A stretch of DNA of 64,000 nt from Nannocystis sp. RBIL2 (GTDB lineage: Bacteria > Myxococcota_A > Polyangia > Nannocystales > Nannocystaceae): the NCBI RefSeq assembly GCF_026626745.1, contig NZ_JAPNJW010000002.1:1190151-1254150 (forward strand), read 5' to 3'. Shown here one piece after another: positions 1,887 through 64,000 of this stretch (position 1 is its first letter; every line of letters starts with the position of its first letter). Under the pieces are notes generated by a model. The model saw nothing but the letters and a program-made list of their open reading frames with translations. It made no database searches and was not told the origin of the DNA. The translations under genes were made by a program, and so were the position numbers.

Positions 1887-1909
1887 GACATGTCCTTCAG
1901 GGCATGTCC
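1887..1909. repeat. GGACATGYCC-family palindromic element
   Basis: AGACATGTCC ... GGGCATGTCC between the PHP gene and the methyltransferase. Confidence 0.7.
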
Positions 1910-1935
1910 TTTCAATCACACTTAGCACCCGCCCG

Positions 1936-2697
1936 TCACACCGCCCGCAGCACGTAGAACGAGTACCCGTAGTCCTCGGCGTGCGCGCGGAACATCGCCA
2001 CCTCCGCCTCCGTCTCGCGGATGGCCGCTCGCATCGCAGCGTCCGCCGTCTCACGGACCTCGTCCACCCGGCGCAGGCGCGGCCCGTAGTAGTTGTCCCA
2101 CCACGCTCGCGCCGGCAGCCGATGCACGCTCAGCACCGCGAACCCTGCCTCACGCGCCCGCGCGGCGTTCGTCGCCTCGGTCCCCATCGTCGGATAACCG
2201 GCCGCCCAGTACTCGCGCGCCGCCGCGGCCGGCGTCTCGGTCCACCAGCTCGCCTCCGAGATCACCGCGACCCCGCCCTGCGCCACCAGCGGTCGCCAGC
2301 GCTGCACCGCGCCCGCGAACGTCAGGTGGTACGCAGCCCCCTCCGACCACAGCAAGTCGATCGATCCCGCCGGCCAGTCGAGCGCTGCGAAGTCGGCCTC
2401 CACCGCGCGCACGAGCGACGCGAGCCCGCGCTCGTGCGCCCGCGCCTCGAGCTGGTCGAGGAACGCCCGCAGGCCATCGACCGCGATCACCGGCACCCCG
2501 AACGTCTCCGCCAGGAGCAGCGCCCCGGCCCCCGCGCCGCAGCCGAGGTCGGCGATCCGCGGCGCCTCCGGCAGCGCCGGCAAGCCCGCCAGGATCTCCC
2601 GGCTGAACTGCGGGTCTCCCGGCCCCATGCGCTCGAGCCCGCGGTGCAGCTCGATGAGCGCGGCCATCATCTCGTCTGGTGTCGGCTCGTCGGCCAT
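1936..2697 (-). CDS. class I SAM-dependent methyltransferase
   Basis: ORF 1936..2955, internal Met MADEPTPDE at 2697; glycine-rich SAM motif LGCGAGAGALLLA; the upstream part of the ORF is Arg-rich frame noise. Confidence 0.8.
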   Translation of the reverse strand: MADEPTPDEMMAALIELHRGLERMGPGDPQFSREILAGLPALPEAPRIADLGCGAGAGALLLAETFGVPVIAVDGLRAFLDQLEARAHERGLASLVRAVEADFAALDWPAGSIDLLWSEGAAYHLTFAGAVQRWRPLVAQGGVAVISEASWWTETPAAAAREYWAAGYPTMGTEATNAARAREAGFAVLSVHRLPARAWWDNYYGPRLRRVDEVRETADAAMRAAIRETEAEVAMFRAHAEDYGYSFYVLRAV

Positions 2698-2830
2698 GCC
2701 GCCACGATACCACCCTTCACCGCCGTCGTCCCGCCAGCGACCGGCCGTCTCATCGCCTGTCTCTTCCATCATGTCCCTTCGGACATGCCCATCCTCCCGC
2801 CGCTCCGCCCCGCGGTGTATGCTCGCGCGC

Positions 2831-3748: not shown

Positions 3749-4036
3749 ATGAAGATCGACCTGGAGAAGTTCCTCGCGGCCACCATGCTGCTCGCCACTG
3801 CCACCACCCCGGCCTGCGGCAGCAAGGACGCCAAGAAAGTCGAGACCAAGGCCGACACCAAGACCGCGGCCCCGCCGCCCGCTCAACCCCAGCCGACGCC
3901 GGCGCCGGTCGCCGCTCCGCCCGCCGCGCCCGAGGCTGCCCCGCCGGCGACCCCGCCCGCGCCCGACGCCGCCGACAAGCCCTCCGGCGCCGCCAAGCCC
4001 GACCCGGGCCCCGAGGAAGAGAAGCCGTCCTGGTGA
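3749..4036 (+). CDS. small secreted Pro/Ala-rich protein
   Basis: AAGGAG-like RBS aaggagacagcgATG; N-terminal hydrophobic signal MKIDLEKFLAATMLLATATTPACGS; (A/P)-rich low-complexity body. Confidence 0.55.
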   Translation: MKIDLEKFLAATMLLATATTPACGSKDAKKVETKADTKTAAPPPAQPQPTPAPVAAPPAAPEAAPPATPPAPDAADKPSGAAKPDPGPEEEKPSW

Positions 4037-4042
4037 CCTTTC

Positions 4043-4160
4043 GGGCATGTCCTCTGCGACATGCCCCATCGAACCTGACCTTTTTGCCATGCCCCGAGAG
4101 CCATCCGCGCTCTCGGGGTATTGCTATCTGTCCCGCAGGCCATGTCCCGCGGGACAGCGG
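4043..4160. repeat. cluster of GGACATGYCC-family elements plus palindrome CCGAGAGC-N7-GCTCTCGG
   Basis: GGGCATGTCC, GCGACATGCCCC, CCATGCCCC and TGTCCCGCGGGACA fill the whole 3'-3' intergenic space. Confidence 0.75.
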
Positions 4161-4161
4161 C

Positions 4162-5187
4162 TTAGATCCGCGTCTCGCTGCTCGCCAGGCGCTTCTTGCC
4201 GAGCATCCCCGCGGCGTCGAACCACTCGTAGATGTCGCGCACGCTGTCCGCGAACGGCCGGACCGTGTAGCCGAGCGCGCGCTCGGCCTTGCCGTGGTCG
4301 AAGCGCGCGCGCGTGGCCAGCACCGACAGCGACTCGTGGGTGTAGAGCGGCTCCTGCCGCATCACCGCGCCGGCGACCCCGAACAGCGGCACCCCGACGC
4401 GCGCGAACCAGATCGGCGCCACCAGCCGCGGCGGCTTCACGCCGGTGATCGCCTCGGCGATAGCTCCGATGTCGCGCACGTGCACCGTGTGCCCCGTCAG
4501 CAGGTAGTTCTCGCCGTTCTCGCCGCGGGCCTGCGCGGCCAGCATCCCGGCCACCACGTCGCGCACGTCGACGAAGTCGAACGCCCCGTCGATCAGGCTC
4601 GGCAGCGACCGCCGGTACAGCTGCAGGAACATCCGGCCCATGCGCGACGGTCCGAAGTCGTACGGCCCGATCACGCCCGAGGGATGCACGATCACAGCGT
4701 CGAGGCCGCGACCCATCACCTCGCGGAGCGCCCGCTCGCCGGCCGCCTTCGAGCGGTCGTAGGCGAAGTGGCTCGGCTCGTCGGGCACCCGCGGCCAGCG
4801 CTCGTCGACCTCCACGCCGCTCGTGCCCTCGCGGTAGAGGTCGAACGCGTGGACCGAGCTGCAGTGGACCAGCCGGCGCACGCCCGCGGCCAGCGCCGCC
4901 TCGGCGATCGAGCGCACGCCGTCGACGTTGACCGCGCGCACCAGCCCCCGCGGGTCGCCCGAGATCGAGATCTGGGCCGCGAGGTGATACACGACGTCGA
5001 CTCCCGCGGTCGCGCGGCGCGCCGCGTCCGGATCGCGCACGTCGCCGGTGACGCGTTCGACGTCGAGCCCCGCGAGCGCGCGCTGGGAATTGCGGACGAG
5101 CACGCGGACGCGCTCGCCGCGAGACAGCAACGTACGGACTAGATTCGCGCCGATGTGACCCGCGGCGCCGGTGACGAGGACGGTCAT
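4162..5187 (-). CDS. NAD-dependent epimerase/dehydratase (extended SDR) family protein
   Basis: ORF 4162..5373, Met at 5187 MTVLVTGAAGHIGANLV (Rossmann GxxGxxG); YxxxK region HFAYDRSK. Confidence 0.85.
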   Translation of the reverse strand: MTVLVTGAAGHIGANLVRTLLSRGERVRVLVRNSQRALAGLDVERVTGDVRDPDAARRATAGVDVVYHLAAQISISGDPRGLVRAVNVDGVRSIAEAALAAGVRRLVHCSSVHAFDLYREGTSGVEVDERWPRVPDEPSHFAYDRSKAAGERALREVMGRGLDAVIVHPSGVIGPYDFGPSRMGRMFLQLYRRSLPSLIDGAFDFVDVRDVVAGMLAAQARGENGENYLLTGHTVHVRDIGAIAEAITGVKPPRLVAPIWFARVGVPLFGVAGAVMRQEPLYTHESLSVLATRARFDHGKAERALGYTVRPFADSVRDIYEWFDAAGMLGKKRLASSETRI

Positions 5188-5275
5188 GCGATCGGCGGGA
5201 TGATACAGGCGCGCGGCATTGCGCCTCAAGCCCGACACGACAGCGCAGCACCGTCGGGATAACCTGGACCCGCAG

Positions 5276-8200
5276 ATGTCGCGCGCCGGCGGTGATCCCA
5301 CCCCGCGGTCCTCCGGGCCGGACCCCGATCTCACGCTTGTCGGCGACCCTCCTCCGCGGCCGGATTTCGCCACCGACGAGACTCTGGCCGGAGATCTGTC
5401 GCCCCGCCCGCGGCCCCCCGCGAGCCCGCCGATCCCGCCGCTGGCCCTCGACCGCTCCTCGCTGTCGCAGCGCGAGCGCGCGCTTCAGCTCACCCGCTAC
5501 GTCCTCATGCGTCGCCTCGGCGCCGGCGGCATGGGTGTCGTCTACCTCGCCTACGACCCCAGCCTCGATCGCAAGGTAGCGATCAAGCTGCTGCGCGTGG
5601 CCCCCGGCGACGGCCCGGCCCAGGCCGCGCACGCCCGCCTGCTGCGCGAGGCCCAGGCGCTGGCCCGGCTGTCGCACGGCAACGTCGTCGCGGTCCACGA
5701 CGTCGGCAGCTACGACGCCGACGCCCTCACCACCATGCGGATCGGCCCACACCGCACGGAACCTGTCCCGAAGGACAGGATACCGCAGGCCGCCGGCGTG
5801 TTCCTGGTGATGGAGTACGTCCCCGGCATCACCCTCGCCCAGTGGCTCGACGACCGCGTCCGCGGCGTGCGCGAGGTCCTCGACGTGTTCCTCGCCGCCG
5901 GCCGCGGCCTGGTCGCCGCCCACGCCGTCGGCATCATCCACCGCGACTTCAAGCCCGGCAACGTCCTGGTCGGAGAGACAGGTCGGATCTGCGTGTTCGA
6001 CTTCGGCCTGGCGCGGCCCGCCGGCGAGGTCGAGCCGACGAGCCCCGCTGCTGCGCCCGACCCCGGCGCCCCGATCGATCCGCTGTCCTCGTCGCTGGTG
6101 TCCGGCCCGCTCACCCGCGTCGGCACCCTCGTCGGCACGCCGGCCTACATGGCCCCGGAGCAGCGGGGCGGCGCCGCGATCGACGAGCGCGCCGATCAGT
6201 TCAGCTTCTGCGTCGCGCTCTACGAGGGCCTGTACGGCAACCGCCCGTTCAGCGGCGACAACCTGTTCGCGCTCGAGGCGGCCAAGGCCCGCGGCCGCGT
6301 CGATCCGCCGCGGCGCCCCGCCAAGGTCCCGCCGGCGATCCACCGCGCCATCCTCCGCGGCCTCTCGGCTGAACCCGGGGACAGGTGGCCGTCGATGCAG
6401 GCGCTGCTCGACGCGCTCGAGCGGACGCTGCGGCGCGATCGCAGGCGCTGGGCCCTCGCCGGCGGCGGCGCGCTGCTCGTCGGCGGCGCCGTCGCCTTCG
6501 CTCTCGCCGGTGAAGCGCCCGCGCTGTGCACCGGGGCCGCCGAGGCGCTCGCGCCGACGTGGAACCCCGAGCGCCGCGCCGCCCTCGACGCCGCCTTCGC
6601 GGCCACCGGCCTGCCCTACGCCCCCGACGCGGCCGCGCGCGCCGGCGCGCGCGTCGACGCCTGGGCCGAGGCGTGGATCGCCGGCCACACCGACGCGTGC
6701 GCGGCGGCCAACATCCGCGGCGAACAATCACATGACCTTTTGGACAGGCGCATGCACTGCCTCGAGGATCGCCGCCACGAGCTCGACGCCCTGCTCGGCG
6801 TGCTCGCCGGGGCCGACGCCGACGCAGTCGCGCACGCCCACGACGCCGTCGAGGCCTTGCCGCCCCCGGCCCGCTGCGCCGACCTCGACGCCCTGCGCGC
6901 CGACGTCGCCCCGCCCGCGCCCGCGCTCGTCGAAGCGGTGCAGGGCCTGCGCGACCAGCTCTCGCTCGCCAGCGCCGAGGCTGCGACGGGCCACCCGGGC
7001 GCCGGTCTCAACCTGCTCGAGGCCGCCGAGCAGCGCTCGCGCGACCTCGGCTATCGACCGCTGCGCGCCGAGGTGCTGGCGCAGCTCGCCGACCAGCTGT
7101 TCGTCGCCAGCAAGTACGACGACTGCGTCCGCGTCTACGGCGAGGCCTACTGGGAGGCGCTCGCCGCCGGTCACGATCGCCTGGCCTTCGAGACAGCCAG
7201 CGGCTTCGCCGGCCGCCTGGCGCAGACCCTCGGCCACCCCGACGACGCCCAGCCGTGGCTGCGCCACGCCGAGGCCCTGCACGAGCGCCTCGGTCGCCCG
7301 CCCCGCCTCGGCGGTGACCTCGAGTTCCGCCGCGGCCAGATCGCCGAGGCCCGCCGCGAGTACGGCACCGCCATCGACCACTACCGCCGCTCGCTCGCCG
7401 ACCTGCCCGAGCGCTCGGTCCCCTCCGTCACCACCCGCCAGAACCTCGCCAACGTCCACCTCAGCCTCGGTCAGCTCGAGCCGGCGCAGATCATCTTCGA
7501 GGACCTGCTGGCCCTGCGCCGCGACATCTACGGCGAGGGTCACCCGAACAACGCCTTCTCGCTGGCCGACCTCGGCAACGTCGCCACCCTGCGCGGCGAC
7601 TTCGACACCGCCGAGAAGCACCAGCGCGCCGCCCTGACGATCCTCCGCGCCGCCCTGCCGCCGCGCCACGAGCGGCTCGCGTACCCGCTGTCGGCGCTGG
7701 CCGACATCGCCGCCCAGCGCGGCGACTTCGGCGAGGCCCTCGACGCCTACGAGGAGGCGCGGGCGATCTGGGAGCACAACTTCGGCCCGCTGAGCACCCG
7801 CGTGGCCGCCATGCTCGAGCGCCTCGCTTCGGTCCAGCAGGTGCGCGGCGAGCTCGGTCTGGCCGAGCAGCACGCCACCCGCGCGCTCGCCATCTGGAGC
7901 GCCGCGCAGAGCCCCGACCCCCAGGGCATCGTGCTGGCCCACCTCGCCCTGGCGCAGATCGAGCTCGCCCGCGACAACTACGCCGCCGCCCGCGACCACA
8001 CCGACAAGGCCTTGCCCCTGTCCGTCTCGGTGCTCGGCGAAGACAACCTCTATACCGCCGTCAGCCGGGCGATCCGGGGGGTCGCGCTCGCGGGCCTCGG
8101 CGATCTGTCGGCGGCCGAGCGCGAGGCCGACGCCGCAGTCGCGGCGATCGAGCGCAACTACGGCGGCGACTCGCTGTGGATGTCCGAGGTCCTGACCCCT

Positions 8201-8464
8201 CGCGCCAAGGTGCGGCAGTCGCAAGGTCGCCTCGACGACGCGCGCCGCGACCTCGAGCGCAGCATTTCCTTGCTCGATCCGCGCAACGCCCCCATCCAGC
8301 GCGCCCAGGCCGAATTCCAGCTCGCACAGGTCCTCTGGGACTCTCGCGGAGATCGCGCACAGGCACGTGCCCTCGCTGTTTCGGCGCAGACCCTATTCCG
8401 GAAGGCAGGGGCGAAGCACTACCGGGCCGAGGTCGACGCCTGGCTCGAGCGTCACCCGGCCTGA
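5276..8464 (+). CDS. serine/threonine protein kinase with C-terminal TPR repeats
   Basis: ORF 5219..8464 (TTG); first ATG at 5276; kinase subdomains LGAGGMGVVYLA, VAIK, HRDFKPGNVLV, DFGLAR, GTPAYMAPE; long TPR-like C-terminal half. Confidence 0.9.
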   Translation: MSRAGGDPTPRSSGPDPDLTLVGDPPPRPDFATDETLAGDLSPRPRPPASPPIPPLALDRSSLSQRERALQLTRYVLMRRLGAGGMGVVYLAYDPSLDRKVAIKLLRVAPGDGPAQAAHARLLREAQALARLSHGNVVAVHDVGSYDADALTTMRIGPHRTEPVPKDRIPQAAGVFLVMEYVPGITLAQWLDDRVRGVREVLDVFLAAGRGLVAAHAVGIIHRDFKPGNVLVGETGRICVFDFGLARPAGEVEPTSPAAAPDPGAPIDPLSSSLVSGPLTRVGTLVGTPAYMAPEQRGGAAIDERADQFSFCVALYEGLYGNRPFSGDNLFALEAAKARGRVDPPRRPAKVPPAIHRAILRGLSAEPGDRWPSMQALLDALERTLRRDRRRWALAGGGALLVGGAVAFALAGEAPALCTGAAEALAPTWNPERRAALDAAFAATGLPYAPDAAARAGARVDAWAEAWIAGHTDACAAANIRGEQSHDLLDRRMHCLEDRRHELDALLGVLAGADADAVAHAHDAVEALPPPARCADLDALRADVAPPAPALVEAVQGLRDQLSLASAEAATGHPGAGLNLLEAAEQRSRDLGYRPLRAEVLAQLADQLFVASKYDDCVRVYGEAYWEALAAGHDRLAFETASGFAGRLAQTLGHPDDAQPWLRHAEALHERLGRPPRLGGDLEFRRGQIAEARREYGTAIDHYRRSLADLPERSVPSVTTRQNLANVHLSLGQLEPAQIIFEDLLALRRDIYGEGHPNNAFSLADLGNVATLRGDFDTAEKHQRAALTILRAALPPRHERLAYPLSALADIAAQRGDFGEALDAYEEARAIWEHNFGPLSTRVAAMLERLASVQQVRGELGLAEQHATRALAIWSAAQSPDPQGIVLAHLALAQIELARDNYAAARDHTDKALPLSVSVLGEDNLYTAVSRAIRGVALAGLGDLSAAEREADAAVAAIERNYGGDSLWMSEVLTPRAKVRQSQGRLDDARRDLERSISLLDPRNAPIQRAQAEFQLAQVLWDSRGDRAQARALAVSAQTLFRKAGAKHYRAEVDAWLERHPA
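5762..5779. repeat. perfect 7-bp inverted repeat CCTGTCC-cgaa-GGACAGG inside the kinase catalytic domain (in-frame)
   Basis: Encodes part of an about 20-aa insert (TTMRIGPHRTEPVPKDRIPQAAG) between kinase subdomains IV and V. Confidence 0.7.
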
Positions 8465-8698
8465 TCTTCGCATGTCCTTTCCGCCATGTCGCAATCGACA
8501 TCCGGCGGAAGCCCTAGGGGTTCGAGCGGGGCACCGGAGGCGTGACCGCGGCGACGCCTCGCCCCAGGAAGGTCGCGCCGCGGACCTACCTTGTGCGCCG
8601 GATCGCGGGCCGTCCGCTCGTCGGTCTTGCGACCACGTCACAGAAATTTCGTCGGTCGGCGCTGGCGCATCGGCGAACGTCGTGGGAAAGATCAGCGT

Positions 8699-10783
8699 AT
8701 GTTGTCCTGCTCTGGCCTGGTCTCGCGCGCGTGCCTCACGGTCACGTGGCTCGCCCTCGCCGGCTGTTACAGCGGCCCCTCGGGCGCCATCCCTGACGAC
8801 CAGACGCCCCCGACGCGCCCGCCCGTCAGCCAGGGCCCGCTGGGCGGCCCTCAGCTCTCGCCTCTCGAGCTCGACGCGCTCTCGCCCGACCCTGCGCCGG
8901 GCGGCGTCGCCTTCGACCTCCACGTCACCGGCGCCGGCTTCACGCGCTCCAGCGTCGTCGTCGTCGCCGGCCAGGAGCTGCCGACCACCTTCGTCTCGGG
9001 CGGCGAGTTGCACGCTCACAGCGGCCCGCGCAAGCGCGGCGATTACGAGGTGCTGGTCCGCCGCGACGACGAGGAGTCGCGCCCGCTGACCCTCGCCGTC
9101 GAACGCTCGGCCCCGCGGATCCTCGTCCCCGCCGAGGTCGGGGTCGACGAGGACACCGAGGTCGGCCTCGTCGTCGACGTCGTCGACGTCGCCGATCCCG
9201 CGGCCCTGCGCGTCCACGTGCTCGGCCTGCCGCCGGGCGCCACCTGGGACGAGCCGACCCGCACCTTCCGCTTCACCCCCGACTTCACCCAGGGCGGCGA
9301 TCGCTGGACCGTCACGGTGCTCGCCCACGACCACGAGTCGCGCGTCGAGGCCACCTTCGACGTCGTCGTCCGCGACACCATCCAGCCGCCGTGGCCCGAG
9401 GTCGTCGACACCGAGTTCCTCGACGCCAGCGGATATGTCCGTTACATCCTGTCCCAAAAGACAGATGAGTACCTCGACAGCCCGGGCTACGCCGGCCGCG
9501 AGTTCGTCGCCAAGGTCATGGTCCCGCTCGAGGTCCCGCTCGAGGGCGTGCCGGTGCGGATCGGCCTGCACGGCTTCGCCACCGCCAACCCCGGCGGCAC
9601 CGGCTCGGCCAACGAGATCCGGATCTCCCCGCACGACCCCGACAACACCTACTGGTGGGGCTACGCCGATTCGCTGCCCGACGTCGATCCCGCGGCCGGC
9701 GGCGCCGCGCCCGACTACACCATGCGCCGCGTGCTCCACCTCGTCGAGTACGTCCTGCGCCACCACCCCGAGGCCGACCCGCAGCGCGTCTACGTCTACG
9801 GCAGCTCGATGGGCGGCGCCGGGGCGATGCTGCTCGGCCTCCTGCGCGGGCGTCACTTCGCCTACATCGACGCGCGCCTCGGCCAGGCGATCGCGCGCAA
9901 TCACCGGCCGTCGCGGATCACCCAGCTGTCCGGCTGGTGGGGCGCGCCGGAGCTCGACCTCGACGGCGGCGGCGGCCTGTCGGCCTGGGATCACATGGAT
10001 CTGACGCGCGCCCTCGCCGAGTCAGTCGAGGCCCGCGACCAGTTCCTGTTCCTCAAGCACGGCAAGGACGACCCGACCATCCACTTCGGCGCCACCGTCC
10101 TGCCGAGCCCGCGCACCGGCGAGAGCTTCTATCAGGCGCTGCAGAGCCGCGGCGTCGGTCACTTCGCCATCTGGGACGAGGGCGGCCACGGCGTCGCCGA
10201 TCCTGTCCTCGGGGACAGCTGGTGGGCCGGCTCGTGGGCGCCGATCAGCGGCGACGAAGCCACGCTGCGCCGCGACCGGGCGTTCCCCGCCTTCTCGTAC
10301 TCCTCGCTCGACGACGACCCCGGCGTCGGCGTCGGCAACGGCAAGCAGGACTGGAGCGCCAACGCGGGCTTCGCCGGCGAGGTCGCCATCGCCGGCGACA
10401 CCGGCTGGGACGGCGCCATCGCCGGCGCGCTCGGCCGGTTCCTCCGCTGGGACGGCGCCTCGGTGGTCGACACCGTCGATCGCCTGCAATTCGCCCTGCG
10501 CGTCCACGCAGGCGACGGCGCCGACCCGCCGGCCCCCGGCTACCCGAGCGAGGGCGACCGCGTGATGGCAGAGCTGCCCGCGTTCGTCGACGTGACCCCG
10601 CGCCGCGCCCAGGCCTTCCGCTGTCACCCCGGCGAGCGCGTCGCCTGGTCCTTCGGCCAGGTCCACGGCGAGGTGGTCGCCGGCCCCGACGGCAGCGTCA
10701 CGATCCCCGCCCTGCCGCTGACCGACACCTGGACAAATCTGGTCCTGCGCCGCACGCTCACGGTGATCGCCGCCTCGCACTGA
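8699..10783 (+). CDS. lipoprotein, alpha/beta-hydrolase fold (esterase/peptidase-like)
   Basis: ORF 8591..10783; Met at 8699 MLSCSGLVSRACLTVTWLALAGC (lipobox LAGC); nucleophile elbow GSSMGGAGA. Confidence 0.7.
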   Translation: MLSCSGLVSRACLTVTWLALAGCYSGPSGAIPDDQTPPTRPPVSQGPLGGPQLSPLELDALSPDPAPGGVAFDLHVTGAGFTRSSVVVVAGQELPTTFVSGGELHAHSGPRKRGDYEVLVRRDDEESRPLTLAVERSAPRILVPAEVGVDEDTEVGLVVDVVDVADPAALRVHVLGLPPGATWDEPTRTFRFTPDFTQGGDRWTVTVLAHDHESRVEATFDVVVRDTIQPPWPEVVDTEFLDASGYVRYILSQKTDEYLDSPGYAGREFVAKVMVPLEVPLEGVPVRIGLHGFATANPGGTGSANEIRISPHDPDNTYWWGYADSLPDVDPAAGGAAPDYTMRRVLHLVEYVLRHHPEADPQRVYVYGSSMGGAGAMLLGLLRGRHFAYIDARLGQAIARNHRPSRITQLSGWWGAPELDLDGGGGLSAWDHMDLTRALAESVEARDQFLFLKHGKDDPTIHFGATVLPSPRTGESFYQALQSRGVGHFAIWDEGGHGVADPVLGDSWWAGSWAPISGDEATLRRDRAFPAFSYSSLDDDPGVGVGNGKQDWSANAGFAGEVAIAGDTGWDGAIAGALGRFLRWDGASVVDTVDRLQFALRVHAGDGADPPAPGYPSEGDRVMAELPAFVDVTPRRAQAFRCHPGERVAWSFGQVHGEVVAGPDGSVTIPALPLTDTWTNLVLRRTLTVIAASH

Positions 10784-10797
10784 CCTGGCCATCCGGC

Positions 10798-10860
10798 CAT
10801 GTCCTCTCCGACATTTTTAAGAGGACATGCTCCACCGAGCATGTCCTTTTAAACCTGTCC
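10798..10860. repeat. cluster of GGACATGYCC-family elements
   Basis: CCATGTCCTC, GAGGACATGCTC-cacc-GAGCATGTCC and CCTGTCC between genes; local GC drop (tttttaa, ttttaaa). Confidence 0.75.
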
Positions 10861-11100
10861 TCGTGGGCACCGGGCCGCGAGGGCGACAGCTCGTGGACCC
10901 GCCCAGCGAGCGCGCTCGTCGGACTTCCGCGATGCGACTTCAGGTCGCCATCGCCGGCAGCTCCACCGAGACCCTCGCCTCGGACCGCGCGATCGCCTGC
11001 GTCGCTTCGGGGCTCACTGGCTCGCGCGGCTCCGAGCAACCCGGCGCTCCCGGCCACCCGTCCCGCCGGCACCTCGACGAAGGCCGCCGGCCGCGGTTAG

Positions 11101-12120
11101 ATGCCTCCCGTGCGCGACCCGCGGGTGCTCACGGCTGGCCTGGCGGCCGCTCTCGCCTGCGGGGAGCCGGCGCCCGCTGCTGCGCCCGAGGAGGACGCGC
11201 CCGCACCGACCTCGCGCCCCGCCCCGCGCCCACTCGTCCACCTCGATCCGCTCGGCCCCCGCGACCTCGACCCCGCGCGCGGGTCCTCGCCTCGCCTCAC
11301 CGTCCACCTCGAGCCGGTCGACGCCCGCGACCTCGACCTCCTGGCGCGCTGGCCCTCGCTCGCGCACTACCCCCGTGTCCCGCAGGTGCTCGCCGCCGGC
11401 CTGCGCGCGCGCGACCCCGCCGCGATCTTCCGCGGCATGGAGCTCGCCTTCGAGCCCGATCGCTGGGCCGAGATCGACGCCTGGGAGCGCCTCGGCCACA
11501 TCCGCCTCGGCGATCCCGCCGGCTTCTGCCGCACCGACGCCGGCAGCCCCGTGCGGCTGTCCCCTGGGACATACGACCTCGGCTGCCTCGGCGGCTTCCT
11601 CGAGGGCGTCCGCCTGCTGTGGTTGCCGCGACTCGAGCTCGCGGACCTCGTGCCCTGCGATCCGCCCGCCGGCTTCGAGTCGTGCCAGGACGGCGCCCAC
11701 GCCGGCCGCGCCGCCCTCCTGCAGATAGCGGCGCGCCTGCCCGCCGATGACCTCCCCCACGGCCTCGAGCTGCTCGAGCTGCGCCTCGCCGAGCTCGGCC
11801 CCGACGCCTTGATCGCCGCCCTCGTCCCCGACGCGCTCAACCTCTGCAGCGTCTCGCACCGGGCCCGCGCCCGCGGCGGCGAGCGCATGTACCATCACAT
11901 GATGATCGTCGACCCCGCCCGCGATCGCCTCGGCCGCGTGCGCGTGTTCGACACCACCGGCGCCGCCGGCGTCGCCTGGCGGTCGATGCGACCCGAGCGC
12001 CTGCACGGCTACGCGCGCCGCCTCCTGGCCCTCCACGACACCTTCCGCTACGACCCCGAGTCCGCCCGGCTCACCTGCCTCCCCGTGCGCCCGCCGGACG
12101 GCGAAATCACAGGTCCTTGA
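11101..12120 (+). CDS. hypothetical protein, probable lipoprotein
   Basis: Strong GC3 codon bias in the + frame; N-terminus MPPVRDPRVLTAGLAAALACG; the overlapping minus-strand ORF 11014..12036 is a low-complexity shadow. Confidence 0.55.
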   Translation: MPPVRDPRVLTAGLAAALACGEPAPAAAPEEDAPAPTSRPAPRPLVHLDPLGPRDLDPARGSSPRLTVHLEPVDARDLDLLARWPSLAHYPRVPQVLAAGLRARDPAAIFRGMELAFEPDRWAEIDAWERLGHIRLGDPAGFCRTDAGSPVRLSPGTYDLGCLGGFLEGVRLLWLPRLELADLVPCDPPAGFESCQDGAHAGRAALLQIAARLPADDLPHGLELLELRLAELGPDALIAALVPDALNLCSVSHRARARGGERMYHHMMIVDPARDRLGRVRVFDTTGAAGVAWRSMRPERLHGYARRLLALHDTFRYDPESARLTCLPVRPPDGEITGP

Positions 12121-12719: not shown

Positions 12720-12752
12720 GAGAGGACATGTCCGTATGAACATGCCCTCTCG
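12720..12752. repeat. GGACATGYCC-family element
   Basis: AGAGGACATGtccgtatgaaCATGCCCTCT inverted repeat between convergent genes. Confidence 0.7.
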
Positions 12753-14267: not shown

Positions 14268-14779
14268 TGCGCACCTCGCAAAGGAAACACCGCCTGCATC
14301 GTCAAGTTCTCGCCCGAGTACGTCGCGGACAAGCGGAAGCGGTTCTCGGACACCAGGCGGATGAGGCCGAGCCCGCCGCGCAGCCGCTGCATGCGGCGGG
14401 CGCGGAGCGTGTCGGCGAACAGGCGCTTGGGATCCGTCGCGGTCGTCAGCCGCTCGACGCGGTCCTTGACGTCCTGGTACTGCTCGAAGGTCGCCTTGTT
14501 GGTGACCTGGACCTGCAGCGCGTCGCCGTCGATGCGCAGGTCGACGCGCATCTGGCTGCCCGGATCGCTGACGTTGTCGATCACGTTCTGGACCAGCTCG
14601 GTGATGACCACGTTGGCCTTCTTGCACAGCGCCTGCGGGTAGAACACCGTCAGCATCGCCAGCAGCGACTCGCCGACGGTCGTCGCCAGGTTGCCACGCG
14701 CGTCGCCCATCGGCGCGACCGTCAGCGTCAGGCCGACGCTGGTCGTGATCGGTTCATCGTCGAACTCGTGCTCGCTCAC
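14264..14779 (-). CDS. RsbW/SiaB-like serine kinase (HATPase_c anti-sigma-factor-type)
   Basis: GTG start (VSEHEFDD) overlaps the upstream stop as GTGA; N-box-like ELVQNVIDN and G-box RGGLGLIRL. Confidence 0.55.
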   Translation of the reverse strand: MSEHEFDDEPITTSVGLTLTVAPMGDARGNLATTVGESLLAMLTVFYPQALCKKANVVITELVQNVIDNVSDPGSQMRVDLRIDGDALQVQVTNKATFEQYQDVKDRVERLTTATDPKRLFADTLRARRMQRLRGGLGLIRLVSENRFRLSATYSGENLTMQAVFPLRGAQ

Positions 14780-15702
14780 GCCGCCCGCCTCCGCAGCACG
14801 ATGAGGGTGATGTCGTCGGCGTCGACGCGACGGAACTGCCCGTAGTCGTCGAGGCACCGCTGAAGGATCTGATTGGCCGGCAGCTCCGAGTTGGTGCGCA
14901 CGAGCTCGTGCAGCCGGCGGGTGCTGTAGTCGGCGCCCGCGCTGTCCTGCGCCTCGACCATGCCGTCCGTGTACAGCGCCAGCACGTCACCTGTCTCGAA
15001 GGGCAGCTCGTACTCGCTGTACGCGCGGCGGCGCAGGCCGATGAACGGGTCGCCCTTGTTGAACGTGTGGACCTCTCCGCCGCGGACCAGCACCCCGTAG
15101 CCGCCGCCGCACACGTAGCGGAACGTGCGCTCGCCGAACGCGACGAAGTTGACGGTGGCGTAGCGGCGGACCTCGCGGAGGAACCCGACGGTCGCGTTGT
15201 TGAGGTACTCGACGATGTCGCGCGGGCGCGACACCTGCTCCATCGTCTGGACCAGCTGGGCCTTGAGGTAGGCCATGATCAGCGCCGCCGACACCCCGTG
15301 GCCGGAGATGTCGAACACGCCGATCGCGTGGCTGCCGTCGCGCAGGCGGTAGAAGTCGTAGTAGTCGCCGCCGACCTCGGTCATCTGCTTGTGGTAGACC
15401 GAGAACTCGAAGCGCGCGAGCATCTCCGGGTGGTCCTTCGGCAGCAGCGCGTGCTGGACCTGCTGGGCGATCTCGAGGTCCTGGCGGATGGTCTGGTAGG
15501 CGCGGGCCAGCTCGCGCTCCTGCTCGTCGAGCCGCTCGTACGCGGTGCGCAGGTTGTCGTTGGTCGCCTGCCAGTAGGCGGTGTCGCGCTCGACCCGCTT
15601 GAGCAGGCCCTTGTACATCCAGAACAGCCTGCGCATGTCCTCGCGCGACAGCTCGGACAGGCGGTCGGGGTCTCGCCCCTCGAGGATCTCGTCGAGCGTC
15701 AT
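14776..15702 (-). CDS. PP2C-family protein serine/threonine phosphatase (SpoIIE/RsbU/SiaA-like) with N-terminal coiled coil
   Basis: PP2C/SpoIIE signatures GGDYYDFY, DISGHGVSAALIMA, LYTDGMVEA; stop overlaps the next start. Confidence 0.85.
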   Translation of the reverse strand: MTLDEILEGRDPDRLSELSREDMRRLFWMYKGLLKRVERDTAYWQATNDNLRTAYERLDEQERELARAYQTIRQDLEIAQQVQHALLPKDHPEMLARFEFSVYHKQMTEVGGDYYDFYRLRDGSHAIGVFDISGHGVSAALIMAYLKAQLVQTMEQVSRPRDIVEYLNNATVGFLREVRRYATVNFVAFGERTFRYVCGGGYGVLVRGGEVHTFNKGDPFIGLRRRAYSEYELPFETGDVLALYTDGMVEAQDSAGADYSTRRLHELVRTNSELPANQILQRCLDDYGQFRRVDADDITLIVLRRRAA

Positions 15703-24839: not shown

Positions 24840-24845
24840 CCCCAA

Positions 24846-24898: not shown

Positions 24899-24920
24899 CT
24901 TGTTCATTCCCCTCCGCGGT

Positions 24921-41103: not shown

Positions 41104-41150
41104 AGGACATGTCGCGGTGGACATGTCGTGACAGACATGTCCCTCAGGAC
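41104..41150. repeat. cluster of GGACATGTC elements
   Basis: AGGACATGTCgcggtGGACATGTCgtgacAGACATGTCCCTCAGGAC. Confidence 0.75.
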
Positions 41151-53952: not shown

Positions 53953-56105
53953 TCCGCCCGCGCGCCGCCGCCTCGCCTGCGCCCGCGTCGGCGAGCGGCG
54001 TCGTCGCGCTGGGTGTCTCGGCGAGTAACCTGGCCCAAAGCGCCTGCGACGGCCCGGCGCTGGACGTCGTGTCGCGCGAGCTGGCGTCGCCGCTTCGCGG
54101 CTTCAGGGTCCGTGCGAGCTCCTCGCTCGAGCTCGCGGGGCAGGACTTCCCGCTGCACCCGCCCGCTTCGGCCATGCCAGGCGTCGACGAGATGTCTGCG
54201 AGCTCCTCGCTCGCGGTCGTCTCGCCGCCTCTACTTCTTCGCGGCTTCGAAGCAAGCACTTGCACTGGGCTTGAGGTCGCGTCGCTGCGCTCGTCCGCTT
54301 CGGTCGACGAGACGCCGACGAGTTCGCCGCGCGAGGCCGCGTCGCCGCTTCCACTTCTCTGCCGCTTCGAAGCAAGCGCGAGCACTCGGCTCGAGGTCGC
54401 GTCGCTGCGGTCGACCGCCTCGGTCATGCAAGTTGTCGGCGAGACGCTGGCGAGCTCCTCGCGCGAGGCCGCGTCACCGCTTCCACTTCCTCGCGACTTC
54501 GAGGCAAGCGCGAGCACCCGGCCCGAGGTCGCGTCGCCGCTTCCGCCCGCTTCGGTCATGCGTGGTGTCGACGAGACGCTGGCGAGCTCCTCGCCCGAGG
54601 CCGCGTCACCGCTTCCACTTCCTCGCGACTTCGAGGCAAGCGCGAGCACCCGGCCCGAGGTCGCGTCGCCGCTTCCGCCCGCTTCGGTCATGCGTGGTGT
54701 CGACGAGACGCCGGTGAGCTCCGCGCCCGAGATCGCATCGCCGCTTCTTCGCAATTTCGACGCGAGCGCGAGCTCCTCGCCCGAGTCCCTGTCGCAGGAC
54801 GTCGCCCTGCGGCTGTCCACTTCGGTCGTCTCGCCGCTCCCACTCGCCCGCGTCGCGCACGCGAGCTCGCCGCTCCCTCGTCGCAACTTCCTCCGCGCCG
54901 CGCTCTCGCCCGCAGCGCCTTGCGTCCTCTTCTTCGCGCTCGGGCTCGGCTGCGGGGCCCCTCCGACGGGAGTGCGCGCCGAACCGGGGACGCTGGTGTT
55001 CACGCCGGCGGCGCAGCGTCTCGAGCTGCGACTCGTGAATCACGGCGCGGCGCCCGTCCCGTTGACGCGGATCCGCTTCGACACCCGCACCCCCGACTGG
55101 GGCGCCTTCTCGATCGAGAACCGCGAGTACCCGCGGGAGATCGCTGCTGGCGGAGCCGTGAGCCTGCGCCTCCGCGTCGACCGCGACCACTTCGATCGCA
55201 CCGGCGCCTCCGGCTCCGGCAGCGCGCGCCTCCTCTTCGCGGCGGGAGAGGCGCCCCAGATCGTCGAGCTCCGCTGGGAGCCACCCGATCTCGCGAGCGA
55301 TCTGCGGCGCACGGCGATCCGCACCGCCCTGGCGCTCGCGCTCGTCGCGCTGGCGTGGATCTCGACGCGCCGCACCCGGCTGAACTGGACCGCCTGGCTG
55401 CCGGTGGTGGCCGTCCTGGCGCTGTTCCCGTTCGGTCCGGGCCTGTGCTTCGACGGCCTCGGCAGCAGCCTTTCCGCCGCGGACGTCGAGCAGTGCGCCG
55501 CGGGACGGGGAGGTGCTTCGCTGTCGCTGATCGCCGTCGGCGAAGGCTGGCTCGTCTATCTCGTCGCCCTCGTGCTCGCCGGTCTCGGTCGCCTCGTCGA
55601 CCGGGCTGCGCTGGCCCGCCGCCTGGCGTCGCGCGACCTCGCCCTCGCCGCCGCATTCGCCGGCCCTTTGCTGGCCTTTGGCACCCTCGATCCACGGCAG
55701 CTCGTGGGGGAGCAAGCAGCGGGGCTCGTCGGCGGTGCTGCGATCCCCCCCGCCTGGGGAATCTTCGTGCAACCGATCGCCGCTGCCGTCGCCCTCGCGG
55801 TCGCGGCCGCGCCGCCGGCAGGACGGCTCGAGCGGCTCGTCTTCGCGGCGGCGTTCGTCGCCTGTTTCCTCGGCGGTGGTGTGCCCGCGACGGTACTCGC
55901 CGGCAGCGGCCACGGCCTCGTGCTGTTCATCGGCGCAGTCGTGGCGGCGGCGAAGATCGCTGCGGTCGTGTGGTTCGTGCAGCGGCTGCACGCGTCGGCC
56001 ACCGGCTCGCGTGCGCGCGCCGCTCTCTTCTTTCTCGAGCGGGCCGCGATGCCCCTGGCGATCGCCAATCTGCTGGCGACGTCGGTCTACGCCCTGCTGT
56101 GGTGA
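53949..56105 (+). CDS. repeat-containing protein with Tat/lipobox-like internal signal and a multi-TM C-terminal domain (start uncertain)
   Basis: ATGA overlap with the upstream gene; frame open through the 120-bp repeat array; PRRNFLRAALSPAAPCVLFFALGLGC looks like a twin-arginine lipoprotein signal; C-terminal 300 aa has at least 6 hydrophobic helices; the true start may lie downstream of the repeats. Confidence 0.45.
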   Translation: MIRPRAAASPAPASASGVVALGVSASNLAQSACDGPALDVVSRELASPLRGFRVRASSSLELAGQDFPLHPPASAMPGVDEMSASSSLAVVSPPLLLRGFEASTCTGLEVASLRSSASVDETPTSSPREAASPLPLLCRFEASASTRLEVASLRSTASVMQVVGETLASSSREAASPLPLPRDFEASASTRPEVASPLPPASVMRGVDETLASSSPEAASPLPLPRDFEASASTRPEVASPLPPASVMRGVDETPVSSAPEIASPLLRNFDASASSSPESLSQDVALRLSTSVVSPLPLARVAHASSPLPRRNFLRAALSPAAPCVLFFALGLGCGAPPTGVRAEPGTLVFTPAAQRLELRLVNHGAAPVPLTRIRFDTRTPDWGAFSIENREYPREIAAGGAVSLRLRVDRDHFDRTGASGSGSARLLFAAGEAPQIVELRWEPPDLASDLRRTAIRTALALALVALAWISTRRTRLNWTAWLPVVAVLALFPFGPGLCFDGLGSSLSAADVEQCAAGRGGASLSLIAVGEGWLVYLVALVLAGLGRLVDRAALARRLASRDLALAAAFAGPLLAFGTLDPRQLVGEQAAGLVGGAAIPPAWGIFVQPIAAAVALAVAAAPPAGRLERLVFAAAFVACFLGGGVPATVLAGSGHGLVLFIGAVVAAAKIAAVVWFVQRLHASATGSRARAALFFLERAAMPLAIANLLATSVYALLW
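54060..54900. repeat. tandem array of about 7 units of about 120 nt (two adjacent near-identical copies at about 54453-54572 and 54573-54692)
   Basis: Unit GAGACGCTGGCGAGCTCCTCGCNCGAGGCCGCGTCACCGCTTCCACTTCCTCGCGACTTCGAGGCAAGCGCGAGCACCCGGCCCGAGGTCGCGTCGCCGCTTCCGCCCGCTTCGGTCATGCGTGGTGTCGAC; all six frames stay open across it. Confidence 0.85.
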
Positions 56106-57420: not shown

Positions 57421-57426
57421 GTCGGC

Positions 57427-57465
57427 TGTCCTGAGGGACATGTCCTCACGGGCATGTCCCTCGGC
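57427..57465. repeat. GGACATGYCC-family element
   Basis: CTGTCCtgaGGGACATGTCCtcacGGGCATGTCCC downstream of the DUF4388 gene. Confidence 0.75.
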
Positions 57466-59212: not shown

Positions 59213-59581
59213 GCTGCAAGCGTGGTGTGACTGGGTGCCGACGCGCGGGCTCAACCGAGCCGCGTACCTGGCCCAAAGGTCAGACGCATCCTCGCCGCAG
59301 CGCTGGCCCGCCCGAAGTCCGCACCTGCCCCTCGGGCAAAGTGTGACCGCGCGTTTTCCGCCCGAAGTCCGCACCTGCCCCGAAGGCCAGGCGCGTCACG
59401 TGGCTCGCCCAGCTACCAGCGCCGCGCACGACTCCGCTCGAGCCACGCGGCTGAACGACGCGCGAGGTCCAGGTACGACGAGCGCGCCCGGGCTGCGGCG
59501 AGCGCAGCGCGGGCGCGAATGTGTCTGGCCGATCGCGCATGTCCCCGGGACCCTGTCCGCGGGGACACACGCCGACGGCGC

Positions 59582-59848
59582 TCAGGACGCGGCGGCCTGC
59601 TTCTCTTGCACCGTCTTGTGCAGCAGGTCGACGAGCTCGTCGATGTTCGTCAACTTGTTGAGCTCGGCGCGGGGGACCTTCACCTTGAGCTCGCGCATGC
59701 TGCAGGAGACGACCTCGACGATGTCGAGGCTGTTGGCGCCGAGGTCCTTCATCGACTTGGCGGGGTCGACCTGGGCCGCATCGATCCCTTCGACGGTGTC
59801 CACGAGGTGGCGCTTGACGACGGCCAAGACATCATCGCGGGTGCTCAT
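59582..59848 (-). CDS. acyl carrier protein
   Basis: AAGGAG RBS 7 nt upstream; phosphopantetheine site DLGANSLDIVEVV; 88 aa. Confidence 0.85.
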   Translation of the reverse strand: MSTRDDVLAVVKRHLVDTVEGIDAAQVDPAKSMKDLGANSLDIVEVVSCSMRELKVKVPRAELNKLTNIDELVDLLHKTVQEKQAAAS

Positions 59849-61542: not shown

Positions 61543-62319
61543 TCATCCTCCCTGGCCTGGCCCGTAGTTCGTGCGGATCCGCGCCACCGTCTCCGGGTCG
61601 GCGAAGCATACCTCGTGCATCATCGACTCGACCGTGCGCGCCTCCTCGAAGGCCCGTCGGCGCGGCAACGCCAGCGCACGTTTGAGCAACAGCAGCGCAG
61701 CCCGCGGCTTGTCGGCGATCCGCGCCGCCATGTCGAGGGCCCGCGGCAGCACCTCGACGCGCGGCACGACCGCGTTGACCTGGCCGCGCCCCGCCAGCTG
61801 CTCGCCGCGGAAGTACTGCGAGCCGTACAGCATCTCGGCCCCGACGTACTCGCCGAACGCGAACTGCACGAGGCGCGTCGCGCCCATCCCCGGCGTGAAG
61901 CCGAGGTCCATGAAGTTGGCGCCGTAGCGGCTCTCGCGGGCCATCACGACCATGTCGCAGGCGAGGCCGAACACCAGGCCGCCGCCGACCGCGGGCCCCG
62001 CCATCGCGGCGATCGTCGGCACCGGCACCTCGAGCAGCGCCCGCGTCAGCAGCAGGTCGTACGGGGCGATCGTGCCGTCGGCGAGGCCGAGCAGGACGTC
62101 GCGGTCGCCGCCGGCGGAGAACGCCTCGGGCAAGCCAGCGACCACGCACACGCGCACGTCGGCGCGCCGGCCGAGGTCCTCGAGCGCGCGCGTCAACGCG
62201 GCCGCGAACGCCCGGCTGAACGCGTTCTTACCGGCCGCGTCGCGCATGGTCAGCACTGCCACGCCGTCGCGCTCGAGCGTCACCTCGACGAGGCTGTCTG
62301 TTGGGACATGCGCGTTCAT
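61543..62319 (-). CDS. enoyl-CoA hydratase/isomerase family protein (ECH2-like position in a beta-branching cassette)
   Basis: ORF 61543..62730 trimmed to Met MNAHVPTDSLVEVTLERDGVAVLTM at 62319; crotonase fold; ATGA overlap with the upstream ECH. Confidence 0.75.
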   Translation of the reverse strand: MNAHVPTDSLVEVTLERDGVAVLTMRDAAGKNAFSRAFAAALTRALEDLGRRADVRVCVVAGLPEAFSAGGDRDVLLGLADGTIAPYDLLLTRALLEVPVPTIAAMAGPAVGGGLVFGLACDMVVMARESRYGANFMDLGFTPGMGATRLVQFAFGEYVGAEMLYGSQYFRGEQLAGRGQVNAVVPRVEVLPRALDMAARIADKPRAALLLLKRALALPRRRAFEEARTVESMMHEVCFADPETVARIRTNYGPGQGG

Positions 62320-63071
62320 TCCTGTCCTTTCAGCCTGGCGAACCACGGCGGCGCCTGCCCCTCGGCCAGCAGGGCCGCCAGCGCCGCCCGCAGCTCGGGG
62401 TCTTCGAGGTCGGCCGCGGTCTGGGCCACCCCGCCCTGCCCCGCCGGCCCGGTGATCCGCTTGAGCGTCGCTACCGCCTGCGGCCGCGCGCGCAGCAACG
62501 AGCGCAAGAGGCCGCGCAGCGCCTTGTCCGGGTCGTCCGCGACCACGTCCACGAGACCCCACGGCTCGGCCTGGGCGGCAGTCACCAGCTCGCCGGTCAG
62601 CGCCAGCCGCCGGGTCCGCCGCGCGCCGATCCGGGCCTCGAGCGCCGGGAAGATCACCGCCGGCACCAGCCCGTAGCGCAGCTCCGGCAGCGCGAACGTG
62701 GCGGTCGGCGCCGCCACCACCAGGTCGCACGCGGCCGCCAGGCCGACCCCGCCGCCGCTGGCCGCGCCGGTGACCACCGCGAGGGTCGCCAGCTTCGCGC
62801 TCGCCAGCAGCTCGAGGCAGCCGGCGAAGCGCTGCATCGCCTCGCGCATCTGCGCCGACGGGGTCCGCAGCGCCGCCGCCAGGTCCATGCCGGCGCAGAA
62901 CTCGGGGCCCTCGCTGGCGATCACCAGCGCGCGCGCCGGGCCGGCGACCGCCTGCTCGACCGCGTCGGCCAGCGCGGCGATCCCGTCGGTGTCCAATGCG
63001 ACATGTCCTCCGGGACCTGCCCCGAGGAACAGCCGATGGATCAGCTCGCCCTCTTCGCAGCGGACGCGCAC
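62316..63071 (-). CDS. enoyl-CoA hydratase/isomerase family protein (ECH1-like position)
   Basis: GTG start; crotonase-fold pattern ...ALVIASEGPEFCAGMDL...; directly follows the HMGS homologue. Confidence 0.75.
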   Translation of the reverse strand: MRVRCEEGELIHRLFLGAGPGGHVALDTDGIAALADAVEQAVAGPARALVIASEGPEFCAGMDLAAALRTPSAQMREAMQRFAGCLELLASAKLATLAVVTGAASGGGVGLAAACDLVVAAPTATFALPELRYGLVPAVIFPALEARIGARRTRRLALTGELVTAAQAEPWGLVDVVADDPDKALRGLLRSLLRARPQAVATLKRITGPAGQGGVAQTAADLEDPELRAALAALLAEGQAPPWFARLKGQE

Positions 63072-63179
63072 GCGATCACCTCCGAAGTGCAGAAACGAGG
63101 GGACGAGCGGCCGGGCCGCACGACGCCGAGAGGCGGCGCGGCCGGCGTGGCGAGGGACATGCGCGGCATGGTCGGAGCC

Positions 63180-64000
63180 TCAGGACAGGCGGTACTCCCG
63201 CTGGAAGCCGCGCACCGCGTCGAGCACGAGGCGGCCCTTGCCGGCGTAGGCGCGCTCGTAGAGCCCGCGCAGGCCCGACTGGTCGACCTCGTAGTCGCTC
63301 TGGTCGATGAAGGCGGCGCGCTGGCGCTCGAGCGCCTCGTACTCCTCGATGGTCAGCGGCATGCGGCGATCGAGGCCGGCGCCGACGCGCTGGCTCGCGA
63401 CCTGCTCGCGCGCGCGCTCGCCGACGGTCGCGCGGTAGAACTCGGCGCAGGAGCCCGAGCCGTAGGAGAAGATCGAGACCTTGTCGCCCGCGCGCAGCTC
63501 GGGGTCGGCGTCGATGAGGCCGAGCATGGCGATGAAGGTCGCCGAGGTATAGGTGCCGCCGAAGCGCGAGTTGTAGCGCAGCGCCTGCTTCGACTTGCGC
63601 TCGAAGTGCGCCTTGGCCTCGCGCAGCGACATCTCGTGCGGACCGCGGCGCAGCAGCGCCCGGTGGGCCCTGAAGGTCATGCCGCCGAACGGCACGTGGT
63701 AGATGTGGCGCGCGAACTCGGCGTCGTAGTCGACCATGCCCGAGCGGGCGACGAAGTGGTCGTAGGCGCCCTCGAGCGCGTCGAGGTAGCCGTACAGGCT
63801 GGTGTCGGCGTGGCCGACCTCCTTCGTCGAGGTCGGGCGGTAGGTGTCGAAGATCTCCTGCGTCCAGTAGCCGCAGGTGTCGAGGTCGAGCTCGAGCACG
63901 TCGGGCTGGGCGCTGACCAGCATCGCAGTGGCCGCCGCGCCGAGCACGTACTCCCACGGCTGGCCGAGGTGCACGCGGCTCTGATCGGTGCAGACCACCA
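63180..64000 (-). CDS. HMG-CoA synthase family protein (polyketide beta-branching HCS-type), C-terminal part; continues beyond window
   Basis: FSYGSGSCAEFY signature and the overall HMGS C-terminal pattern; the N-terminus lies past 64000. Confidence 0.85.
   Translation of the reverse strand, partial: VVCTDQSRVHLGQPWEYVLGAAATAMLVSAQPDVLELDLDTCGYWTQEIFDTYRPTSTKEVGHADTSLYGYLDALEGAYDHFVARSGMVDYDAEFARHIYHVPFGGMTFRAHRALLRRGPHEMSLREAKAHFERKSKQALRYNSRFGGTYTSATFIAMLGLIDADPELRAGDKVSIFSYGSGSCAEFYRATVGERAREQVASQRVGAGLDRRMPLTIEEYEALERQRAAFIDQSDYEVDQSGLRGLYERAYAGKGRLVLDAVRGFQREYRLS

Follow-up and report, generated by a model that had tools for sequence, protein, structure and literature searches.

Phased palindromic arrays at gene 3′ ends form a genus-wide repeat family in Nannocystis

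Introduction

Short palindromes recur between the genes of a 64,000-nucleotide stretch of DNA from Nannocystis sp. RBIL2 (assembly GCF_026626745.1, contig NZ_JAPNJW010000002.1, positions 1,190,151 to 1,254,150, the whole of which is called the window below), which raises the question of what these elements are and what maintains them. A sequence-only reading had described them as a hairpin family resembling repetitive extragenic palindromic (REP) sequences or miniature inverted-repeat transposable elements (MITEs), with arms at varying distance, rather than as the operator of a single transcription factor. As analysed here, they constitute a real, genus-wide and strongly non-random family of tandem arrays, the head-to-tail 14-bp phasing of which is absent from that earlier description. 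The explanation that we favour, with modest confidence, is a REP-like family of transcript 3′-end hairpins, bidirectional terminators or stabilisers, with a sequence-specific factor maintaining them.

A 14-bp module in strict register

The repeated module is a 14-bp inverted repeat, TGYCC-N4-GGRCA, and head-to-tail abutment of units creates at each junction the decamer GGRCA|TGYCC, two neighbouring junction decamers being reverse complements of each other. Arrays at Nannocystis loci hold two to seven units in a strict 14-bp register, with a local peak at five units, and have the consensus nnnnGGACATGTCCnnnnGGACATGTCCnnnn, without a conserved flanking tetranucleotide. For the window, whose guanine plus cytosine (GC) content is 72% (71.6% where arrays were compared), dinucleotide shuffles predict 0.24 copies of GGRCATGYCC, 0.33 copies of TGYCC-N4-GGRCA and 26 copies of GGACATGTCC with up to two mismatches, against 12, 21 and 70 observed. 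Chance and composition are ruled out by the dinucleotide shuffles and by codon shuffles, and the claim of the sequence-only reading that the counts lie above chance thus holds under both types of null model. Its estimate of about 50 copies, roughly one per 1.3 kb, was right as to high copy number and somewhat too large as to the figure, as a position-weight scan of the window returned 52 units against about 16 in shuffles, which leaves about 36 real units or about one per 1.8 kb. The locally lower GC content that it had described is likewise present, with 58% in arrays, 69% in all non-coding DNA and 71.6% in the window.

Distances between CATG cores reveal the phasing directly, with 20, 8 and 11 pairs in the window at 14, 28 and 42 bp and zero to three pairs at most other distances, and with 383, 213, 149 and 72 pairs at 14, 28, 42 and 56 bp in 722 kb of Nannocystis DNA. 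In the same 722 kb the spacer within the module measures 4 nt in 289 copies, and every other spacing from 0 to 14 nt is represented by at most 10 copies, which rules out hairpins with variable loops. Arm spacings of 0, 4 and 10 nt, as proposed earlier, therefore do not describe the family; the apparent 0- and 10-nt loops result from the 14-bp phasing, the split form being a unit seen half a unit out of phase. Variable spacing had also served as an argument against an operator, which was mistaken, since the spacing is rigid, as a sequence-specific reader would need.

Rigid geometry is what sites on double-stranded DNA would display, and the main rival of the hairpin reading builds on it: a dimeric protein on TGYCC-N4-GGRCA would coat abutting sites every 14 bp and would, at convergent junctions, serve either as an insulator or roadblock to transcription or in DNA topology or nucleoid organisation, the hairpin potential being a by-product. 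A spacer of exactly 4 nt and a phasing of exactly 14 bp speak for such a protein, as do half-sites and junctions that are near-invariant beside free spacers, a spacer composition that is symmetric between the strands, without strand bias, and the 5-N4-5 layout, which is typical of the sites of helix-turn-helix dimers. We nevertheless consider this rival unlikely, better as it is on rigid spacing and on the copies inside genes, because it does worse on covariation and on the strand bias of the hairpins.

A family of the genus

Copies are not confined to the window, as other Nannocystis genomes carry the arrays too. A scan for GGRCATGYCC-N4-GGRCATGYCC in one genome per species matched at least 96 stretches, and about 80% of the 96 matches listed come from N. 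pusilla, N. exedens, N. punicea, N. bainbridge, N. radixulma and Nannocystis metagenome-assembled genomes, arrays being present in at least five Nannocystis species. Among the matches listed, those outside Nannocystis are few; each is a lone hairpin, and in several cases a T run follows, as it does in ordinary terminators. A covariance model built from the hairpins of other genomes and then run on the window recovers 10 clear two-unit hairpins (E < 1e-4) plus weaker ones.

An association with phages was rejected, as the viral collection returned only 4 matches, and no Rfam family matched in the window. The sequence-only reading had recognised no described family, in agreement with the literature searched, where no account of such repeats was found for Sorangium, Nannocystis or myxobacteria generally. 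GGACATGTCC leads there mainly to work on p53 response elements, which resemble it by coincidence.

Arrays at the ends of genes

Genes were called by a codon-usage log-odds scan trained on the window, backed by Pfam matches on the genes flanking the arrays. Relative to these calls, 102 of 208 arrays in Nannocystis loci lie in convergent gaps, 58 in co-directional and 13 in divergent gaps, the remainder being inside genes (19) or at locus edges (16). When the gaps that had brought each locus in were removed, arrays were found in 23 of 52 convergent gaps (44%), 26 of 273 co-directional and 8 of 80 divergent gaps, an occupancy of about 10% for non-convergent gaps. The window, which is free of this selection, gives CATG pairs 14 bp apart in 5 of 9 convergent, 5 of 43 co-directional and 3 of 9 divergent gaps, together 13 of 61 called gaps, and the elements hence do not fill almost every intergenic gap, as had been stated.

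In co-directional gaps, 14 nt (median) separate the array from the stop codon upstream and 175 nt (median) separate it from the next start, and stop codons often fall within the terminal module or a spacer, as at 4034, 24837, 41101 and 41144. Of the 12 exact decamers that the window contains, all but one are located outside the interiors of coding sequences. The arrays consequently belong to gene 3′ ends and not to promoter regions, and the promoter siting of an operator for one transcription factor was not found: only about 10% of the divergent gaps hold arrays, and arrays adjoin stop codons. Avoidance of promoter regions also counts against a double-stranded DNA reader.

Neighbouring units pair as hairpins

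Of 100 pairs of adjacent strict decamers, 46 are complementary at every variable R/Y position, where 27.7 would be expected. Single decamers show no enrichment of self-complementarity, and its depletion within the unit at positions 3 and 8 (odds ratio 0.41) excludes a set of independent 10-bp palindromes. Five-unit arrays have a degenerate, AT-rich middle unit, on either side of which the first and second and the fourth and fifth decamers match at 4.0-4.3 of 6 variable positions, against 2.8 for pairs 2-3 and 3-4 and a null value of 3.37. Covariation extends into the flanks, where four positions on each side, which are unconserved and played no part in the selection of the hairpins, reach a score of 0.328 against 0.208 (attained by none of 500 shuffles; slid controls at most 0.19), with 49.4% of the flank cells paired against 40.3 ± 2.2. 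Mismatches in the stem, read on the sense strand of the nearest upstream gene, are G·U in 87 and A·C in 41 cases (p = 6e-5), a bias present in convergent and single-gene contexts alike, and no G+T bias of the flanks was seen as a source of the G·U excess. Structure and sequence both leave a signal. The RNA folds predicted for hairpins of 24-32 nt are strong, from -13 to -45 kcal/mol (z -4 to -8).

A dimer site on double-stranded DNA predicts neither complementarity between different modules or between unconserved flanks nor an excess of G·U over A·C on the sense strand. Covariation of the hairpin together with conserved sequence and rigid loop length would, on the other hand, be left by a true REP system or its hairpin-forming REP doublets (REPINs), in which a REP-associated tyrosine transposase (RAYT), encoded elsewhere in the genome, cuts and copies the non-autonomous modules as hairpins of single-stranded DNA and effects on RNA are secondary. 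The positional traits of the arrays all match published REP behaviour (PMC3733652), inheritance across the genus is vertical, and hairpins formed on the lagging-strand template would be in keeping with the G·T bias as well. We rate a transposase-driven origin as quite improbable all the same, as the arrays lack the GTAG or CGTC tag, stand head to tail in exact phase and not in alternating orientation with variable linkers, occupy the same orthologous sites across species without clear presence/absence insertions, and are accompanied by no RAYT homologue in the sampled loci. A gene flanked by two arrays (locus L018) was considered as a candidate transposase and rejected, as it encodes an EamA transporter.

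Single modules within genes

Modules also occur singly inside coding sequences, in the window at 1380, 5764, 10204, 11558, 19597 and 59097, and 36 more were found in other loci. Codon shuffling predicts 0.16 for the 6 observed in the window and 1.2 for the 45 of a further count, so that intragenic modules lie about 40-fold above expectation, and they use all three reading frames; their density in coding DNA is about 10-fold below that in non-coding DNA. For four of the six in the window, including TGTCC-CGAA-GGACA at 5764-5777 in the Ser/Thr kinase gene 5219-8464, GC content at third codon positions (GC3) is of coding type and the frame is the same on both sides, and those at 19597 and 59097 lie too near the gene end for this test. 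The peptides encoded include xVPxD, LSxGT and CPxGQ. In imperfect intragenic copies, sense-strand mismatches were C·A over U·G by 10 to 2 when counted by hand, and by 16 to 10, not significant, in a wider count.

Copies in all three frames are in accord with a double-stranded DNA reader, and they also bring to mind a DNA uptake signal, spread by biased uptake and recombination and co-opted into terminators as in Neisseria and Pasteurellaceae. Such a signal would likewise be specific to the genus and enriched within genes, and Neisseria offers a precedent for paired copies which make the hairpins past genes (PMC1852404). Known uptake signals, however, are single, asymmetric motifs, which neither hold a palindrome around a fixed spacer nor form phased tandem arrays, and the roughly tenfold lower density in coding DNA would also be less expected of them. 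To our knowledge, moreover, sequence-specific DNA uptake has not been reported in myxobacteria, and an uptake signal appears to us a very unlikely origin of the family.

Array turnover between relatives

Three related loci overlap the window. One (L001, assembly GCA_049060185.1) is 97% identical to window positions 4540-25713, with the SpoIIE-family protein encoded at 14776-15702 unchanged; the others, from N. pusilla Na p29 (L009) and N. punicea FL3 (L084), are 95.5% and 91% identical. Orthologous arrays keep their position and shift in length by whole 14-bp units, as they do in other species pairs. The array at 24832 is longer by 14 bp in N. punicea and by 56 bp in N. pusilla Na p29, and that at 20286 is longer by 28 bp, two extra units, in N. 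punicea, which has moved the stop codon of the upstream gene. The CATG junction diverges between orthologues by 3.1%, the other six decamer positions by 13% and the spacers by 34%, compared with 10.6% at third codon positions and 14.9% in other intergenic DNA.

The 4-nt spacers therefore change about three times faster than third codon positions, for example in window 24846-24897 against L001, L009 and L084, which may point to loops that are hypermutable or to an exchange of units among arrays. A 205-bp stretch at 10816-11020 is present in the window and not in the 97%-identical L001, with one breakpoint in the AT-rich middle unit of the array at 10795-10860. Traits of MITEs were not found, as no bounded elements, terminal repeats or target duplications were seen and arrays stay at orthologous sites; of the REP/MITE-like hairpin family proposed earlier in place of a single operator, the REP-like, dispersed and hairpin-capable part is retained and the MITE-like part is not.

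Copy number that shifts in 14-bp steps and spacers with as much as 34% divergence are also what a functionless, slippage-prone palindromic minisatellite would show, tolerated where it is harmless, mainly between gene ends. It is hardly credible as the whole explanation, given a CATG junction (3% divergence) constrained like non-synonymous sites, a strand-specific G·U bias with flank covariation, the occupation of about half of the convergent gaps in several species, and the maintenance of single modules inside genes.

A possible role for the hairpins

According to the favoured reading of transcript 3′-end hairpins, transcription of the upstream gene would allow a pair of decamers to fold, just past the stop codon, into a 10-14-bp stem capped by a loop of 4 nt, and the common five-unit array would supply one hairpin per converging transcript, with the degenerate, AT-rich middle unit between the two. 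Most probably such hairpins terminate transcripts in both directions or stabilise their 3′ ends. In other bacteria, REP sequences, bacterial interspersed mosaic elements and paired DNA uptake sequences in terminators have this kind of effect. Slippage is the likely cause of the growth and shrinkage of arrays by units. Because the rigid 4-nt spacer and the near-invariant sequence are not needed by a hairpin alone, we infer a sequence-specific protein, a nuclease or transposase of REP type or another reader, which would recognise or copy the module.

Several observations weigh against this reading. The covariation is incomplete, with pairing in no more than about half of the flank cells, and the isolated module shows no significant covariation between Y3 and R12 (odds ratio 1.66). 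In the 8 nt downstream of the hairpins on the sense strand U tracts are not in excess (T 262, A 316), and canonical U-tract terminators are accordingly unsupported. Nor was an orientation bias of stable tetraloops found (GNRA 15 against 18, UUCG 6 against 7), and selection for stable RNA tetraloops has thus left no sign. A role at RNA 3′ ends explains neither the spacer of exactly 4 nt nor the intragenic modules in all three frames. A tblastn search with Escherichia coli RayT against 720 kb of sampled Nannocystis loci gave no match, in a sample too small to mean absence. A terminator consensus scan of 20 kb returned one array-derived site only.

Individual arrays of the window

At 1886-1909 the two-unit array AGACATGTCC-ttca-GGGCATGTCC lies in the convergent gap 1859-1935 (RNA fold -13.6 kcal/mol, z -4.7; covariance-model match of 30.5 bits), and a second two-unit array at 2767-2790, with a 7-bp stem and the loop CTTC, lies in a divergent gap and overlaps the start codon of the methyltransferase gene 1936-2772 on the minus strand. 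An array of about six units in 14-bp register at 4032-4110, matched by the covariance model, holds the stop codon TGA (4034-4036) within its first, degenerate module TGACC-TTTC-GGGCA. It is followed by a separate inverted repeat, CTGTCCCGC…GCGGGACAG, at 4124-4160, which contains the module TGTCC-CGCG-GGACA and adjoins the stop of the minus-strand epimerase gene 4162-5238.

Three degenerate units at 8468-8503 begin 4 nt past the stop codon at 8464. The array of five to six units at 10781-10872, directly past a stop codon, has the AT-rich middle unit GACATTTTTAAG and a 17-bp hairpin at 10815-10852, with an RNA fold of -44.8 kcal/mol (z -8). The convergent gap around 12720-12751 is marked by a two-unit hairpin with the extended stem GAGAGG…CCTCTC, again matched by the covariance model. 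At a co-directional junction the upstream open reading frame (ORF) reads through the three units at 20286-20323 to a TGA in a spacer. Five to six units at 24822-24901 occupy a convergent gap, with the stop of gene 24258-24839 in the first unit (CCATGA), two hairpins and an RNA fold of -43.1 kcal/mol.

The three AT-rich units at 32189-32226, in a divergent gap, are a weak member, the RNA fold of which is no better than shuffles. At 41094-41150, by comparison, three full units with flanking half-sites take up an entire 40-bp convergent gap, and the stops 41101-41103 and 41144-41146 lie in the spacers. Two units and one module at 42946-42982 are located about 150 nt past the gene end at 42802, and the part of the next ORF that looks coding lies downstream of them. 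The best covariance-model match, at 39.6 bits, belongs to a module plus two-unit hairpin at 57422-57465, which begins 2 nt past the stop at 57420 and has an RNA fold of -30.8 kcal/mol. Towards the end of the window, degenerate units in register at 59535-59568, including TGTCC-GCGG-GGACA, lie 14 nt from the stop of gene 59582-59848 on the minus strand, two degenerate units at 62999-63022 lie between two minus-strand genes, and degenerate units at 63155-63190 adjoin the stop codon 63180-63182 of the minus-strand gene 63180-63998.

Modules can travel inside longer repeats, as in the 46-bp tandem repeat at 30788-30916 (2.8 copies, 92% matches), which lies in a convergent gap and carries a TGYCC-N4-GGRCA module of the form TGTCC-N4-GGRCA in each copy. 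Degenerate relatives of the form CCTGTCC-TYTC-GRMCAGCC recur at 28421-28909 on the plus strand within a 76-bp tandem repeat. This repeat, at 28424-28909, has about 3.8 clear copies, each with a degenerate module CCTGTCC-TYTC-GACCAGCC, and older copies upstream, and precedes the M3 peptidase gene 29074-30780. Other tandem repeats are found at 11227-11368 (period 66 bp), 45720-45930 (106 bp) and 54303-54747 (132 bp), the last with 3.4 copies and 89% matches in a region without a confident coding or non-coding call.

Position 23052-23092, which had been listed as a member, is the coding 3′ end of an ORF with synonymous changes in N. punicea. The ORF, which ends in …TCPLCHAPKDSKP*, is small, has a CxxC motif and overlaps the start of the next gene (ATGA), and its likeness to the repeat is due to chance. 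Identical 20-mers, TGCAAGTGAGTGCTCACTCA, each with a palindrome, are present at 27719-27738 and 27762-27781 in the divergent gap upstream of the TetR-family gene 27830-28423. The pair looks like an ordinary operator pair unrelated to the arrays, its place (27719-27781) being a promoter region, in contrast to the arrays at gene ends. In one minus-strand gene cluster, a bacterial GRAS-domain protein (16243-17358) is encoded two genes from the SpoIIE-type phosphatase (14776-15702).

Discussion

The arrays fit the known class of REP-like palindromes at 3′ ends, with a phased-array anatomy that is unusual. Surveys of REP sequences describe repeats that lie downstream of genes, often provide their stop codons, at times occur within genes and contain G·T pairs in their stems, which suggest transcription (PMC3733652). 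As REP sequences and bacterial interspersed mosaic elements (BIMEs) do, the Nannocystis arrays form short, high-copy, genus- or species-specific stem-loops downstream of ORFs in convergent and co-directional gaps, and they, too, often supply the stop codon and occasionally lie inside genes. They differ by the absence of a GTAG or CGTC tag, by a stem that is built from the palindromic junction decamer, and by units, up to seven, which stand head to tail at 14 bp, whereas BIME units alternate with variable linkers; the Nannocystis unit is symmetric, so that its orientation cannot be defined. Membership in the REP/RAYT family is not established.

Uptake signals, known as DNA uptake sequences (DUS) or uptake signal sequences (USS), share with the arrays one conserved motif of about 10 nt that forms the stems of many hairpins past genes, occurs inside genes as well and is common to a genus, and about 55% of the high-confidence terminators of Neisseria contain the uptake sequence (PMC1852404). 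The Nannocystis motif differs as a symmetric 5-N4-5 palindrome in phased tandem arrays, and it is much rarer in coding DNA. With bidirectional intrinsic terminators the arrays have in common a symmetric GC-rich hairpin immediately past both stops, in some cases with A/T-rich flanks, for example at 10815-10852; they have no general U tract, and a shared sequence with a fixed loop length is foreign to ordinary terminators. Short palindromic sites that abut at a fixed period are also known as the met-boxes of MetJ, which are located in the promoters of one regulon. The Nannocystis arrays, by contrast, lie at gene 3′ ends genome-wide and show base-pair covariation.

A different outcome, to which we assign a low probability, would be that a dedicated protein specific to the genus reads the array DNA, its molecules lined up at 14-bp intervals at almost all convergent junctions, or that the module represents the first uptake signal of the Myxococcota. 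If true, either would also account for the exact 4-nt spacer and for the intragenic modules in all frames, and a protein-read array would amount to a protein-based bidirectional terminator, insulator or supercoil-handling system.

As a REP-type family, the arrays would stand outside the GTAG and CGTC super-families. Extrapolation from the window gives about 4,000 modules in a 12.7 Mb genome and, with Nannocystis genomes of 11-13 Mb, thousands of copies. The module would mark the ends of a large share of transcription units and may serve as an operon-end marker, and array length may be of use in strain typing. The family would provide a test case for what maintains a conserved sequence in terminator-like hairpins, whether a transposase, a factor that binds RNA or DNA, or biased uptake, and its arrays are candidate compact bidirectional terminators for the engineering of myxobacteria, which are important producers of natural products.

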